From Escherichia coli (GTDB lineage Bacteria; Pseudomonadota; Gammaproteobacteria; Enterobacterales; Enterobacteriaceae), in the NCBI RefSeq assembly GCF_024298765.1, contig NZ_CP101211.1: a DNA stretch of 64,000 bases; one strand, written 5' to 3'. Below, piece by piece: positions 3,001-12,000 of the stretch. The position numbers are program-made. Every line of letters begins with the position of its first letter. Position 1 is the stretch's first letter.

Positions 3001-6000
3001 TCTACGGTAGTGCCAGGTGATGTACGAGATAATATCGCCGAGTGCAACCTTTACCTCATCGGGTATATCCAGGTAACGGGCCTCTTCAGGAACCTCTTTA
3101 ACATACTTCTGGTACTCCGCGAACATCTCCTGTGACCTTGCAAACGAGCCGCCAACAGCGTTTCTGAGCCAGTGAACTTTGAAGCTCAGATCGATATTTT
3201 CCGGGTTAATTTCTTTCTCTTTGCACAGACGTTCGATTGCATTGAAGTAATCGATCATCGCGATAGATGAGTACCTTGAACGACCCATTTCCTTTGATTT
3301 TTCAGTGGATTCGCTGCGGATGTCATTCTGCACCTCTGGCGGGGTAGCATCGTTCAGGCTTTTTTCTTTATCATTTTCAATCATCATTTTTTTCCTGCGG
3401 CCGGAAGCTGGTTTGCAAAATATATGCTGATAAGATCGTTCAGAGCATTCAGAAGCGAGATACTGTCGATGCAAATATGAACGTTTCCATTCTCAAACAG
3501 GCGACACCGCCAGCCATTCTCATCACTGACCTCGCCTGTGAATTCTGTATTTCTCATGGCCGTCAGCCTGTCGACCATACTCAGCCCACCGCCGGTTGCA
3601 GGTGTTGGAGTATCAGAACAGATGCATACAATATTCTCAAAGTCGCGTAAACAAAAGTGATTGTCCTGCGAGAAACCGTTGTACCTCAGCACGTTCACAC
3701 CAGGAAAAATCCCCCGAAGAACAAGCTTTTTTGGCATTGTATATTGCCTGGCATTGCTTTTGAAACTTCGGTCAAGCTTGTTGAGAACATCAACGAAACC
3801 TTCTGCAAGGGTGTCTCGTCTGTTAGCCAGTGCATGCTGTAATGTTCCCTTAACAATCTCCAGGGAAGCGACGGGCGGATCCGTACGAAGGGATTCGTTA
3901 AAGGCTTCTTTTTGCTTATGGTTCCAGTACCGGTCCATACCTGTTTCTTCAAAGAGCCTTTTCCACGTTTTACGGTCAATTTCCTTACGCCCCTCCTCGA
4001 TGGTGCGATCCAGTGACGACGGAAGACCAAATGCGTTGGGCTGCATAATTCTGCTGGTGAAGAGAGAGAGACCGCACAGTTCCGACGCTTCCGAGATTAA
4101 CCGCATCCCTTCTTCGAATTTCTGCATGGCCATATCCCGGGCGCTGATGAGCTGCCCTGTCCGGCTCGCCGGTACTGGCTCAGAACCCTGGTTTTGAGTC
4201 ATTTTACACTCCATTTTGGTATGTCAGAACATTTTGATTTGAGCAAAGGTAGGACACTATAAAACCTATAGAATTTACGTAGAAACGCGTTTAGTAAAGG
4301 CTTTACTAATTACTAATGACTAACATATTAGCACTTTCAGATATGCCAGCAATACCCCCAGCCAGTGAAATAATGTGATGAGCCCATTAATTGGGGGTAA
4401 TCATTCTATCTGGTTGATATTTAACGCTTTTAATTGTCATCCTTATGTAAGCCTATGGGATTTACTCCTAATTAAATCCCATTGTATGAAAAATAGGCAT
4501 TTATAAGCTTTCATGACGTGACGTTGTCACGTATATCAATGGAATTTAGTCACTAGTAAAGAGTTAACTAGTGACTATCTGCCTAATCGGTGTGCTTGAA
4601 CGGTGCACTCCAGGGCGGATATAAAAATTGATGAGAGATATACAGAAAATGATGGACCGGCTTAATAAGCCAGCCTTTCTTGGGAGGATTGATGCTGCTG
4701 AACACGCTATAAAGCGAAAATGCCCCTTTTTAACCTATAGGTAGGGCACTATGAGTAAGATACAATCAAATCGCCAGTCAGATGGCTAATTTCATGATGA
4801 CCAAAGCGGGCTATTTCAAGCGTTATCGCTGAGACGAGGCTTCAATGACAAGTACACTTGACCCATCACACAAGCAAATTGAAATGTGGCGCAGAGCTAC
4901 CGGTTCCGAAGGTGGACTCGACGAATACCGCAACTGGGTTCTGGAAAATAGTATGAGATTTACAGCATACGGTATCCATACCGTTATCGTCGAAGGTGAG
5001 GCGAAGCATATAACAGCGCTTGATGATGTTACCCTCTGTAACGAGTGGGCGAAGCTTAAAAGAGAAAACAATAGGCTTTACGCAGCAAATGAAAAAATTT
5101 GCTCTGGCTGGCGTGGTTTTGTGTTGCGTTTGTTAGGAATAACACTGTCATGCAGAAAACCGGTCATCTTACTGGGGGCAGACGCGAAGAATCAAAATGA
5201 TGCCGTGAAAGGGGCTGATTTGTAATTTTCAGGCGAGCCCACCGTTCTTAGAAAGCTGTTCTATGGGTATGTAAGGAAGATAATGTTCTCTGAACGCTCA
5301 GTACACTTAATCACTTCCTGTACAAAGGGCAAGAATCATCAGGGCCACGTCTGGCCGACATTGGACATAGATCCAAAACAAACCCCGGACGACGCAGCAT
5401 ATGCCTGGAGTAACATTGTAGACGACGCCAGAAGTAATCAGGCGGTACCGGCATTGTCCTTGTATTCAGGTAATCACTGGTCTACGGCAAAGGAAATTTT
5501 AAACTCAACCAGAAATCTGGAGTTGTGGATAATCTCTGCCGGGATGGGGTTTTTAAATAGTCGAGATCGGGTGCCCTCTTACGAGGCGACATTTCATCAA
5601 GTACCATTCAGGCATGATCTCTGGTGGAAAGCCATCACAAAATCACTAGGTAAGCATAACCGTTGCGCAACTATAAGCCAGTTAATGCAGTCCAGCCCGA
5701 ATGATGAATATTTGATTGCGGCTTCGCCTGTTTATATTGCTGCTGTCCAGAATGACATCCTGAAGGGCATTGAGAGTTTGACTCATCCTCTTACGCAACT
5801 AACGATCGTGACATCAGGGGCATATGCTGGCCCACTTGAAGAATACTTAATTAAGAGTTCTTCAAGAATGATGAAAGAGCTAGAGTGCAATATGGTGTGC
5901 CTGAATATAAAACTGGCTCAATACATACTTAAAAGTGGTAGTCGTTAGAACTAGACTGTTAATGATACAATTCTCCGGTAATGACTCCAACTTATTGATA

Positions 6001-9000: not shown

Positions 9001-12000
9001 GCATCGGATTCGTTTAGTTCTTCAATCATACCCATAGTCATGATACCCGCATTATTAACAACAATATCAAGCCTACCGAAATGTTTAACTGCTGTTTCAA
9101 CCGTAGAAAAAACAGCCTCCCTATCTGTAACATCGAGGTTTAATGGCAGTAAGCTCTCTTGATATGTTTCTTCTAGCTTCGCCAAATTATCGATAGTCCT
9201 TGCAACTGCAACAACTTTATCCCCGGCTTTCAAGGCGGCGCATGTAAAAGCATAGCCAAGCCCCTTGCTTGCTCCGGTAATAAACCATACTCTTTTATTT
9301 TCGCTATTAGGTATCATAGATATTCTCCTTTAGGCTATTATAGAAAGATTATTATAAGCGAAATTAATACCGTTAAACGCCATGAGCCCGACAATTTTGA
9401 GCACTTTGTTTTGTACTCCCAGAAGCTCACCACTACAAATTATCATCAACCCGGTCCTTTTTTCAGTCCACTTGCGGTTTCATTGTTACTTTGTCATAGC
9501 GTCGTGTCAGAATGCGGCAGAGAACAGCGTTTACTATCAACGCAACACCAGACCAGAAAAACCATGTATTAACACCTATAACCTCAACAACCGGACCTGC
9601 AACAAGTAAGCCTATCGGCATAGAAAGAGTCATGGCGGTCATCAAAAGGGAAAACACCTTGCCCATCATTTCAGGGGCAATGCTTTCTTGAACATAAGCC
9701 ATAACAGGAACATTCATAAATGGGCACTGTTGCAAAGTTAGCGATGAGGCAGCCTTTTGTCTTATTCAAAGGCCTTACATTTCAAAAACTCTGCTTACCA
9801 GGCGCATTTCGCCCAGGGGATCACCATAATAAAATGCTGAGGCCTGGCCTTTGCGTAGTGCACGCATCACCTCAATACCTTTGATGGTGGCGTAAGCCGT
9901 CTTCATGGATTTAAATCCCAGCGTGGCGCCGATTATCCGTTTCAGTTTGCCATGATCGCATTCAATCACGTTGTTCCGGTACTTAATCTGTCGGTGTTCA
10001 ACGTCAGACGGGCACCGGCCTTCGCGTTTGAGCAGAGCAAGCGCGCGACCATAGGCGGGCGCTTTATCCGTGTTGATGAATCGCGGGATCTGCCACTTCT
10101 TCACGTTGTTGAGGATTTTACCCAGAAACCGGTATGCAGCTTTGCTGTTACGACGGGAGGAGAGATAAAAATCGACAGTGCGGCCCCGGCTGTCGACGGC
10201 CCGGTACAGATACGCCCAGCGGCCATTGACCTTCACGTAGGTTTCATCCATGTGCCACGGGCAAAGATCGGAAGGGTTACGCCAGTACCAGCGCAGCCGT
10301 TTTTCCATTTCAGGCGCATAACGCTGAACCCAGCGGTAAATCGTGGAGTGATCGACATTCACTCCGCGTTCAGCCAGCATCTCCTGCAGCTCACGGTAAC
10401 TGATGCCGTATTTGCAGTACCAGCGTACGGCCCACAGAATGATGTCACGCTGAAAATGCCGGCCTTTGAATGGGTTCATGTGCAGCTCCATCAGCAAAAG
10501 GGGATGATAAGTTTATCACCACCGACTATTTGCAACAGTGCCACTTGACCTGATAGTTTGGCTGTGAGCAATTATGTGCTTAGTGCATCTAACGTCAAAA
10601 TCAGCGGCGCGTTTTTATGCGTCCGCTGGATTTACTTGTTGTGCGGCGTCGCAGACTCATTGAGCAACCTTTTTGCCTGCGCAATTACAGTTCTCGGAAG
10701 CTCGATATTCAGAGGTTCTGTCACGCTCTTGAACAATTCGAGACTCCACGTCCACGTTTGATGATAGGCTGCACATAGTGCTCTTGGTTCTGCACTGCTT
10801 GTGCATGCCAGATAGCGATTATACGAGTCCTCCGAGATATCCTTTTCGAGCGCGCGTGAAGGTGTCGGCCAGTGGTCTGTTGCCCCTTCGTGGAGTCGAA
10901 CCAGCTTGAGTAGGTTTTCATGTGCTTTGCTGAGCAAAGCCCAGGCGCGAGCGTACTCTCCCCGATTTAAAAGATTGGCCCCAAAGAGCATCAGGCTGAT
11001 GAGGTTCAACACAAGCCCTTCCACCAGCGGCGCGCCTTCACGTATCGGGGGACCGCCCACGAGAGCGCTTGCGTACCTTGACAACTCTCCTGATCGGTCC
11101 AACAAAACAGCCGCCTCAAGCGAGGGAAACCACCCATAGCCTTGCCAAGTGGAAATGACCGGTATGTCCGATTTTCGCATGAAATGGAATTCACCGCGAA
11201 TGCCGTTTTCAAAAAGTGCGGTGTGGTGGCCGAAGTCGTCCGGAAAGTAAGCAGCAACCGGACTTACGGCATTAAGCCACGAGCGCTGATCGAAATTTTC
11301 AAAATGGTCATCCTGGATGAACACTGCGAATTCGATATCAGAGAACTCGTCACCCTCTCCGATAGCAAATGAGCCGAACATCAATGCCGCGATTATTCGT
11401 GCATCCTCATGACAACCTTCCTTGAAGAGTTCGATCATTTTCAGTTGAAGCATAGAAATATCCTTTTATTGAAGCCACAGATTATGAGGAAAGGTATACG
11501 CAGATTTTTGTTTTTTTTCGTCAGCACAACGCCGGAGTTAAGCCGCCGCGCGTAGCGCGGTCGGCTTGAACGAATTGTTAGACATTATTTGCCGATTACC
11601 TTGGTGATCTCGCCTTTCACGTAGTGGACAAATTCTTCCAACTGATCTGCGCGCGAGGCCAAGCGATCTTCTTCTTGTCCAAGATAAGCCTGTCTAGCTT
11701 CAAGTATGACGGGCTGATACTGGGCCGGCAGGCGCTCCATTGCCCAGTCGGCAGCGACATCCTTCGGCGCGATTTTGCCGGTTACTGCGCTGTACCAAAT
11801 GCGGGACAACGTAAGCACTACATTTCGCTCATCGCCAGCCCAGTCGGGCGGCGAGTTCCATAGCGTTAAGGTTTCATTTAGCGCCTCAAATAGATCCTGT
11901 TCAGGAACCGGATCAAAGAGTTCCTCCGCCGCTGGACCTACCAAGGCAACGCTATGTTCTCTTGCTTTTGTCAGCAAGATAGCCAGATCAATGTCGATCG

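Follow-up and report, generated by a model that had tools for sequence, protein, structure and literature searches.

The stretch of DNA analysed here (64 kb, hereafter the window) is, judged by sequence comparison, part of an IncHI2 plasmid similar to pHNSHP45-2 and pR18.0877_278k. Past its final backbone gene lies an IS1 copy, directly followed by a resistance module (positions 6745-9722) that ends at an IS26. The order IS1, sul3, small ORFs, SDR gene, mef(B) fragment and IS26 had been proposed in the first-pass annotation of this DNA, and the sequence, the ORFs and the profile matches bear out every coordinate. The features are:

5283..5948, plus strand: final IncHI2 backbone gene before the resistance region, intact, DUF6884-like hypothetical protein (ORF, Pfam DUF6884)
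5968..5976: CAATTCTCC, one copy of the 9-bp target duplication (duplicated in relatives; uninterrupted site in 720 plasmids)
5977..6744, minus strand: complete IS1, 768 bp (sequence, inverted repeats, ORFs)
5992-6495, minus strand: insB' of IS1 (ORF; NCBIfam transpos_IS1 positions 76-199)
6414-6689, minus strand: insA of IS1 (ORF; NCBIfam transpos_IS1 positions 1-81)
6745..6753: ATAGTGTAG, first 9 bp beyond the IRL terminus of IS1 (comparison with canonical contexts)
6745..6908, plus strand: 3' remnant of a small hypothetical ORF (CDS WP_109023896 in CP024136, CP046382, pHNSHP45-2 and CP031190)
6911..7702, minus strand: sul3, full-length sulfonamide-resistant dihydropteroate synthase (NCBIfam NF000296, Sul3; Pfam Pterin_bind)
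7825..8067: 243-bp remnant of an IS91-family (ISCR/ISEc28-like) element end (similarity to plasmid sequences)
8171..8416, minus strand: N-terminal fragment of a GrpB-family gene (Pfam PF04229 positions 1-59 of 159; GrpB annotation in relatives)
8454..9317, minus strand: complete SDR-family oxidoreductase gene (NCBIfam PRK08263, 463.9 bits; Pfam adh_short)
9463..9722, minus strand: 260-bp 3' remnant of mef(B), cut by IS26 (NCBIfam Mef(B) residues 325-409 of 409, plus the stop codon)
9723..10542, minus strand: IS26, 820 bp, module boundary (inverted-repeat matches, sequence)

The IS1 begins 28 bp past the stop codon of the DUF6884-like gene and is the sole copy in the window, both strands having been searched. 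It has the features of its family (about 768 bp, inverted repeats of about 23 bp), with imperfect 23-bp terminal inverted repeats: IRR (GGTAATGACTCCAACTTATTGAT, 5977-5999) faces the backbone, while IRL (6722-6744, reverse complement) faces the sul3 module. An A6C frameshift motif lies in the insA/insB' overlap (GTTTTTT on the plus strand, ~6434-6440, i.e., AAAAAAC on the minus strand). The element is identical at 768 of 768 positions to the IS1 found at the same site in seven relatives, as well as to both IS1 copies bounding the catA1-mer unit of pSE81-1705-1. Nevertheless, no 8-9-bp target duplication surrounds it: as the first-pass annotation had pointed out, the left (CAATTCTCC) and right (ATAGTGTAG) flanks do not match, agreeing at three of nine positions, and neither has another copy, direct or reverse complement, in the 64 kb. 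This absence is to be attributed to a later event and not to non-membership in the IS1 family.

The sul3 module (2,978 bp) is 100% identical to hundreds of plasmids, many of which match it up to its final base before IS26, with 921 records spanning 80% or more of the query. It displays the conserved order of sul3, GrpB fragment, SDR gene and IS26-truncated mef(B). The sul3 gene is aligned over positions 1-263 of the 263 of its NCBIfam profile (613.6 bits for a cut-off of 475); its own upstream region is kept intact, and its expression should persist. The 243-bp IS91-family remnant, which is part of the conserved module, shares about 97.5% identity with a segment of pKp202_1 located between ISCR1 and armA; in pNT1F31-96kb, the match extends to about 295 bp and abuts a complete IS91-like transposase gene at that gene's 3' end. 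Its assignment to ISVsa3 was discarded, as no match was obtained with the ISVsa3 copies of the relatives' loci compared. On the other side, mef(B) is complete in CP046382, and the mef(B)|IS26 junction of the window recurs in CP024136. Beyond the IS26 follow a 3'-CS stub, lnu(F) and aadA22, which belong to another integron (annotation of pR18.0877_278k).

In the canonical contexts (CP024136, CP046382, pHNSHP45-2 and CP031190), sul3 has a fragment of the IS256-family element IS440 on its 3' side, and both this fragment and CCTCTTGATT come before ATAGTGTAG. The small ORF found there between IS440 and sul3 has lost its 5' end to IS1 in the window, and the remnant has no family match in NCBIfam or Pfam. 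The view that IS1 occupies the side usually taken by IS440 is thus confirmed, the junction lying 134 bp to the sul3 side of the canonical position of the IS440 fragment. With IS1 left of 6745, neither the IS440 fragment nor the qacH/qacL link from sul3 to a cassette array and intI1 is present. Nor is sul3 enclosed in a pseudo-compound transposon with IS26 on both sides, as IS26 is found at 9723-10542 only and the other edge is IS1.

The insertion site in related plasmids

The backbone sequence expected past position 5976 was indeed recovered in relatives: window 1-5976 is 99.95% identical to pHNSHP45-2, which runs on uninterrupted beyond CAATTCTCC. Across PLSDB, this site is empty in 720 plasmids and occupied by IS1 in 188. 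Two of the plasmids (pCFSAN061772_02, CP042895; and CP139813) carry a simple IS1 insertion with CAATTCTCC duplicated on either side, the element being identical to that of the window (768/768). In other relatives, CAATTCTCC is duplicated around two direct IS1 copies that enclose a Tn2670-like (catA1 plus Tn21) region. Tn2670 is an IS1-bounded region in which a Tn9-like element is interrupted by Tn21 (PMC12494131). pEco_M21816_274 has two direct IS1 with CAATTCTCC at both outer flanks, and the records in which an intact duplication surrounds the composite are CP133924, CP040806 and AP027927. A chimeric query made of the backbone, IS1 and the catA1 flank is matched over its full length in CP031190, AP027927 and pEF01. 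At the opposite end, pEF01 reads mer-IRmer-58 bp-IS1-CAATTCTCC-backbone, a right-hand composite junction shared with AP027927. A total of 360 plasmids carry the merR-IRmer-58 bp-IS1 junction, among them the IncHI1 plasmid pSE81-1705-1, whose IS1-catA1...mer-IS1 unit is flanked by an 8-bp duplication. We also considered p1658/97 as a carrier of a full Tn2670 and set it aside: IS26 cuts the structure, and catA1 is absent from the stretch viewed. With its single IS1, the window does not have two direct copies within an outer duplication, and neither does the complete relative pR18.0877_278k. Likewise, catA1 beside one IS1 and a Tn21-family mer end beside another are absent from the region under study.

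The duplication of CAATTCTCC in relatives implies a normal transposition of IS1 into the site, with the mismatch developing afterwards and at a single end; the CAATTCTCC|IS1 junction on the backbone side is the undisturbed original one. The first-pass annotation had regarded relatives with IS1 and an intact 9-bp duplication at this site as evidence against a deletion or rearrangement. Such relatives do exist, and the deletion claimed for the window still stands.

A probable deletion anchored at the inner end of IS1

The S. Indiana plasmid CP031190 reads backbone-IS1-catA1-tnpA-tnpR-intI1-estX-psp-aadA2-cmlA1-aadA1-qacL-IS440-sul3-GrpB-SDR. Its positions 1-2103 correspond to window 4642-6744 and its positions 15335-18085 to window 6745-9495 (100% identity), while the 13,231 bp in between, from the IRL terminus of IS1 to the base before ATAGTGTAG, are missing from the window. 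The genes lost relative to CP031190 are catA1, GNAT, the Tn21-type tnpA and tnpR, intI1, the estX-psp-aadA2-cmlA1-aadA1-qacL array and the IS440 fragment. Together with the anatomy of the locus, the shared insertion site and the duplication in relatives, this exact difference from a colinear relative is established. An old flank kept at one terminus, farther DNA joined to the other and the segment between missing make up the structure of an adjacent deletion, and the exact loss from the IS1 terminus is its signature. The first-pass annotation was right in taking IS1 as a deletion boundary, but not in placing that boundary between backbone and resistance region: as the comparison with CP031190 shows, the loss lies at the sul3-side end of IS1, inside the resistance region. 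Elsewhere among IncHI2 plasmids, that end of IS1 is joined to catA1, to an aadA fragment, to a truncated IS26-like element accompanied by tet(M) or to the backbone 2,340 bp onward, and these varied partners form a nested series anchored at one terminus.

The mismatched flanks of the window's IS1 are thus quite probably the scar of an adjacent deletion made by IS1 within a Tn2670-like transposon on an IncHI2 plasmid, and we infer that the IS1 transposase, instead of recombination between two IS1 copies, was responsible. According to this scenario, a Tn2670-like composite (two direct IS1 enclosing a Tn9-like catA1 segment that a Tn21-family transposon interrupts) would have entered the IncHI2 intergenic site, duplicating CAATTCTCC, and the window's IS1 would be its catA1-proximal copy. 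Inside the Tn21-family transposon would have been a class 1 integron of the sul3 type (intI1-estX-psp-aadA2-cmlA1-aadA1-qacL-IS440-sul3-GrpB-SDR-mef(B) remnant-IS26). Then, in an intramolecular transposition, the inner (IRL) end of IS1 may have attacked ATAGTGTAG, just past the IS440 fragment, so that the intervening 13.2 kb (catA1, GNAT, tnpA, tnpR, intI1, all cassettes, qacL and IS440) would have been lost, with the outer end retaining its original backbone flank and leaving CAATTCTCC|intact IS1|ATAGTGTAG-sul3. At the far end, a second IS1, a second CAATTCTCC and 1,382 bp of backbone would have been replaced by an IS26 boundary inside hns, a claim drawn from complete relatives with the window's junctions and not from the window itself: pR18.0877_278k has a single IS1, lacks both missing partner sequences and has lost 1,382 bp of backbone at its IS26|hns junction. 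In the window's sublineage, a later IS26-bounded inversion would have flipped the backbone segment bearing IS1. As for CP031190, it is not the direct ancestor, since its IS26 lies 227 bp nearer to the SDR gene and it has no mef(B) remnant; a true ancestor carrying the 260-bp remnant was not found among the relatives.

A simple insertion of IS1 between an already adjacent backbone and sul3 module, with an absent or atypical duplication, has nothing in its favour beyond the intact IS1. It is refuted by the continuation of the backbone, which goes on with other genes, by the IS440 fragment that precedes ATAGTGTAG in about 900 plasmids, and by the colinearity of CP031190; moreover, the two flanks are contiguous in no relative. 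More complex routes are conceivable because the sul3 integron can also be found beyond the other end of the backbone segment and in the opposite orientation, as in pHNSHP45-2. The resident IS1 could have attacked ATAGTGTAG across that segment, inverting it and duplicating IS1. The orientations fit such an event, as the integron of pHNSHP45-2 is located left of the segment with sul3 pointing at it, and as the segment runs opposite to the backbone on either side of it in pR18.0877_278k and the window. Yet, the identical IS1|sul3 junction is found in pB1S11-p2 and pVE-F10_1, where the segment has its ancestral orientation, the inverted segment of pR18.0877_278k is bounded by IS26 copies, and neither a second, inverted IS1 nor a reciprocal junction exists in pR18.0877_278k or PLSDB, whereas CP031190 offers a colinear precursor one step away. 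We therefore reject the inversion, which is strongly disfavoured.

The same product as from the adjacent deletion would result if the resident IS1 had recombined homologously with another IS1 at ATAGTGTAG. Here, a second copy, inserted at ATAGTGTAG in a sul3 integron carried either by the plasmid itself or by an incoming molecule, would have recombined with the resident one in a RecA-dependent manner, deleting or replacing the DNA between them, and the outcome would be indistinguishable. These plasmids carry many IS1 copies of identical sequence, and the process plausibly explains both the two plasmids with a lone IS1 and its duplication and the tandem IS1-IS1 of pCE2050_B. Nonetheless, in none of the 72,556 PLSDB plasmids is the IS440 side of ATAGTGTAG contiguous with IS1 (among the matches to this reciprocal junction, the best six place IS1 about 320-520 bp off), and the 60 listed of the 73 IS1|sul3 carriers all measure 199-453 kb, which is IncHI2 size. 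We thus consider recombination an unlikely origin of the window's junction and prefer an adjacent deletion by IS1 transposase as the more probable one.

The identical IS1|sul3 junction is present in 73 public plasmids, whose hosts (for the 60 listed) are Salmonella, E. coli, E. albertii, Enterobacter, Klebsiella, Shigella and Leclercia. All carriers examined share the aadA22-lnu(F) array, while three examined further also share ramAp and the IS26|hns junction. We somewhat favour the view that IS1|ATAGTGTAG-sul3 is the clonal marker of one expanding IncHI2 multidrug sublineage, born from a single deletion, and that the inner end of the resident IS1 was the main sculptor of its resistance region. 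If true, the nested deletions from this end could order events in IncHI2 evolution. The exact junction could act as an epidemiological marker. The arrangement itself is ordinary and already widespread, and involves no new element, gene or mechanism. It explains the detachment of sul3 from its integron on a widespread plasmid lineage, with little importance beyond bookkeeping, as well as the lack, at this position, of the precursor's chloramphenicol (catA1, cmlA1) and some of its aminoglycoside determinants. In practice, PCR schemes linking sul3 to qacH or IS440 would fail on this lineage. Our literature searches found no paper on this junction, PMC6206278, PMC12054066 and PMC8920835 mentioning only the plasmids or the canonical sul3 integron.

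Comparison with known systems

The 3' region of sul3 class 1 integrons reads qacH/qacL-IS440-sul3-orf-mef(B) remnant-IS26 (Antunes et al. 2007, Curiao et al. 2011 and Moran et al. 2016, cited in PMC6206278). The window's module is 100% identical to it, and CP024136 has the same IS26 cut and short mef(B) remnant; in contrast, the window lacks the IS440 fragment, qacL, the cassette array and intI1, its module being detached from the integron. In Tn2670 of NR1/R100, a Tn9-like catA1 segment, bounded by IS1, is interrupted by Tn21 (PMC12494131; bioRxiv 10.1101/334409). Relatives have, at the exact IncHI2 site, the similar structure IS1-catA1-GNAT-Tn21-type tnpA/tnpR...mer-IRmer-58 bp-IS1 with a flanking duplication, whereas the window retains one IS1, without catA1, the Tn21 transposition genes or the 5' part of the integron. 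Furthermore, Tn2670, known here by the description of R100, carries In2, while the precursor integron was of the sul3 type.

Adjacent deletions mediated by IS1, reportedly described by Reif and Saedler in 1975, are a classical behaviour of this element. As in these, one end keeps its flank and the other abuts new DNA at the exact terminus, a colinear relative defines the loss, and relatives differ in their end points from the same end; unlike them, the window's event is natural and historical, inferred by comparison and not observed experimentally. The closest counterparts are pR18.0877_278k and related IncHI2-IncHI2A multidrug plasmids of Salmonella Goldcoast and Agona (PMC12054066). Although the interior of the resistance region is arranged otherwise, the mer-sul2 segment of pR18.0877_278k being, for instance, missing from the window, positions 1-14149 and 49522-62000 are about 99.98% identical to that plasmid, including the whole IS1-sul3 arrangement.

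IS1 and the sul3 module in their usual context

The window comes from an IncHI2 plasmid, and its positions 1-5976 are 99.95% identical to the IncHI2 relative pHNSHP45-2. Beyond them lie IS1 and a sul3 module bounded by IS26, in which every element named by the first-pass annotation was found where that annotation had placed it.

Features of IS1 and of the sul3 module in the window
5977-6744, transposase frames on the minus strand: IS1, complete (768 bp)
5992-6495, minus strand: insB', part of IS1
6414-6689, minus strand: insA, part of IS1
6911-7702, minus strand: sul3, full-length (NCBIfam Sul3, 613.6 bits)
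8171-8416: GrpB fragment
8454-9317: SDR gene, complete
9463-9722: mef(B) remnant, final 85 codons
9723 (start): IS26, bounding the sul3 module

The minus-strand transposase frames place IRR at 5977, towards the backbone, and IRL at 6744, towards the resistance genes; a search of the window returned this one copy of IS1. Its 9-bp flanks, CAATTCTCC on the backbone side (5968-5976) and ATAGTGTAG on the sul3 side (6745-6753), are indeed mismatched, agreeing at 3/9 positions, and neither recurs on either strand of the window. The backbone expected past 5976 was sought in pHNSHP45-2, which continues beyond CAATTCTCC into three small ORFs and then hns, all missing from the window. Junctions were counted in the plasmid database PLSDB.

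PLSDB records by state of the site
Site uninterrupted: 720
Backbone-IS1 junction: 188
IS1-ATAGTGTAG-sul3 junction: 73 (all of the 60 carriers listed are plasmids of 199-453 kb)
Opposite junction, IS1 IRL end with CAATTCTCC and continuing backbone: 10

Hundreds of plasmids carry a sul3 module that matches window 6745-9722 at 100% identity (at least 80% coverage in 921 records). In the canonical contexts compared (CP024136, CP046382, pHNSHP45-2 and CP031190, an S. Indiana plasmid colinear with the window), the order in the window orientation is intI1 (minus), cassettes (plus), qacL, a fragment of the IS256-family element IS440, a small hypothetical ORF and sul3 (minus), followed by GrpB, SDR, mef(B) or its remnant where kept, and IS26. 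Since sul3 is thus directed at IS440, the IS1 of the window occupies the IS440 side, as had been proposed; the junction falls 134 bp from the IS440 fragment, on its sul3 side, where the canonical sequence just before ATAGTGTAG is ...CCTCTTGATT.

Upstream of sul3, 243 bp of the conserved module (7825-8067, to about 8117) are ~97.5% identical to DNA of pKp202_1 that separates ISCR1 from armA. The match is longer in pNT1F31-96kb, at about 295 bp, and there it directly adjoins the 3' end of an IS91-family transposase gene, which is complete and has an erm gene next to it. This suggests that sul3 was once mobilised by an ISCR/ISEc28-like rolling-circle element.

A 13.2-kb deletion beside IS1

In the window orientation, CP031190 reads backbone, IS1, catA1, GNAT, Tn21-type tnpA and tnpR, intI1, estX-psp-aadA2-cmlA1-aadA1-qacL, IS440 fragment, sul3, GrpB, SDR and IS26. 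In the alignment, its positions 1-2103 are equal to window 4642-6744 and its positions 15335-18085 to window 6745-9495 (100% identity), with the 13,231 bases in between unmatched at this point of the window; the absent block runs from the first base past the IS1 IRL terminus to the base preceding ATAGTGTAG. One IS1 end retains its old flank, and the very tip of the other is fused to DNA that lay farther along the same molecule. Such a combination is the classical signature of IS1 adjacent deletion, the probable origin of the junction. CP031190 itself is a sibling of the window's ancestor and not that ancestor; its IS26 sits 227 bp nearer the SDR gene than that of the window, hence its lack of the mef(B) remnant. 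In other IncHI2 plasmids, the same IS1 end abuts catA1, a truncated aadA cassette, a truncated IS26-like element with tet(M), backbone 2,340 bp farther on (hns deleted) or a second IS1 in tandem, and these varied neighbours look like a nested series from a single anchor.

The same product as that of an adjacent deletion would result if the resident IS1 had recombined with a second IS1 sitting at ATAGTGTAG; yet we consider this improbable, because PLSDB contains no plasmid in which IS1 abuts the IS440 side of ATAGTGTAG. The orientations would also fit an inversion mediated by IS1 and starting from an arrangement like that of pHNSHP45-2, but three observations contradict it: the IS1-sul3 junction has carriers without the inversion (pB1S11-p2, pVE-F10_1), the end points of the inversion are IS26, and the IncHI2 relative pR18.0877_278k lacks a second IS1. 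As for a simple insertion of IS1 without duplication, already doubted in the first-pass annotation, it is excluded, since no relative has the two flanks side by side. That annotation had made IS1 a deletion or rearrangement boundary between backbone and resistance region: the deletion scar is real, but it lies on the resistance-region side, whereas the backbone junction is original. The observation is confirmed and its interpretation partly supported.

The far end and the neighbouring resistance region

The missing partner of CAATTCTCC was judged from complete relatives with the window's junctions, not from the window. pR18.0877_278k has one IS1 only, and a search of this plasmid returned no copy of the continuing backbone or of the IS440-side sequence; the initial 1,382 bp of backbone past the site are missing and the remainder begins at an IS26 within hns. 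The arrangement of pB1S11-p2 and pVE-F10_1 is simpler: backbone-IS1-sul3 module-IS26-lnu(F)-aadA22-...-ramAp-...-IS26-aph(3')-Ia-IS26-truncated hns-backbone. Relative to these two plasmids, both pR18.0877_278k and the window have the IS26-bounded segment that includes this backbone stretch and IS1 in inverted orientation, which brings the umuDC side of the backbone, reversed, to the right edge of the window (53530-64000). Positions 53374-64000 hold the umuDC-DsbA-traG side in reverse orientation, at 99.99% identity to pHNSHP45-2 (48000-77999).

Within 9723-53373, there are 22 matches to the IS26 terminal repeats, ten pairs of which are spaced as complete 820-bp copies. An eleventh pair (33419 and 37552) is 4.1 kb apart, and its IS26 sequence covers just 782 bp (33419-34200); this copy may be truncated or interrupted. 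Directly past the IS26 bounding the sul3 module, 10543-12595 contains a short class 1 integron 3'-CS stub, then lnu(F) and aadA22 (minus strand). They belong to a second integron, which IS26 has cut and which has no relation to the sul3-type array of cassettes that was lost. Compared with pR18.0877_278k (143000-192999), a ~12.4-kb IS26-flanked mer-IS5075-sul2-ISVsa3 segment is missing from the window (at 13245-18717) and several further resistance-region blocks differ in order or orientation, which makes the plasmid of the window a rearranged sibling of pR18.0877_278k.

Arrival of IS1 and comparison with Tn2670

Relatives with IS1 and an intact 9-bp duplication at this site, which the first-pass annotation had named as grounds for refutation, do exist: pCFSAN061772_02 and CP139813 match a query assembled from backbone, IS1, CAATTCTCC and continuing backbone end to end at 100%, and are simple IS1 insertions. 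The Australian gull plasmid pCE2050_B (CP073623, 37878-39351) shows a tandem IS1 pair with few bases between, then CAATTCTCC and backbone. In pEGY49_MCR-1.1 (MW719568, 1229-1586), an IS1-end-CAATTCTCC junction is present although the two backbone genes of the site stand only ~300 bp farther apart than in the empty site, which suggests a remnant of IS1 that is truncated or has lost internal sequence.

In pEco_M21816_274, 24.6 kb lie between two copies of IS1 in direct orientation, both matching that of the window at 768/768 positions; the outer flanks are of the CCAATTCTCC type, with CAATTCTCC at both outer sides, and the bracketed region contains an integron remnant, ISCR1-blaCTX-M-2 and mer. 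There and in pEF01, the right-hand IS1 stands 58 bp past IRmer of a Tn21-type mer module, a mer-IRmer-58 bp-IS1 junction shared by 360 plasmids that belong to several replicon types. Among these 360 is pSE81-1705-1 (CP018652; IncHI1, 1981), which cleanly exemplifies movement of the entire composite unit: in it, IS1-catA1-GNAT...IS26...mer-58 bp-IS1 (reverse-complement positions 27510-40145) is surrounded by the 8-bp duplication GAAAAATC, both IS1 copies being 768/768 identical to the window's. That catA1 would lie directly inside the left IS1 in some IncHI2 plasmids was predicted beforehand, then found: a chimeric query of backbone, IS1 and catA1 flank has full-length matches in three plasmids (CP031190, AP027927 and pEF01), two of which also possess the right-hand junction. 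Together, the duplication, the mer-58 bp-IS1 junction and the catA1 inside the left IS1 of these relatives point to the IS1 of the window as the catA1-side copy of a Tn2670-like composite transposon inserted at CAATTCTCC.

Although we found no paper spelling out this 13.2-kb deletion, it amounts to routine mobile-element archaeology: its components and process are all well known, and 73 public plasmids, among them the published pR18.0877_278k lineage (PMC12054066), have exactly this arrangement. The IS1-catA1...mer-IS1 units of the relatives share their architecture with Tn2670, a region bounded by IS1 whose Tn9-like catA1 element carries Tn21 as an interruption (PMC12494131; bioRxiv 10.1101/334409).
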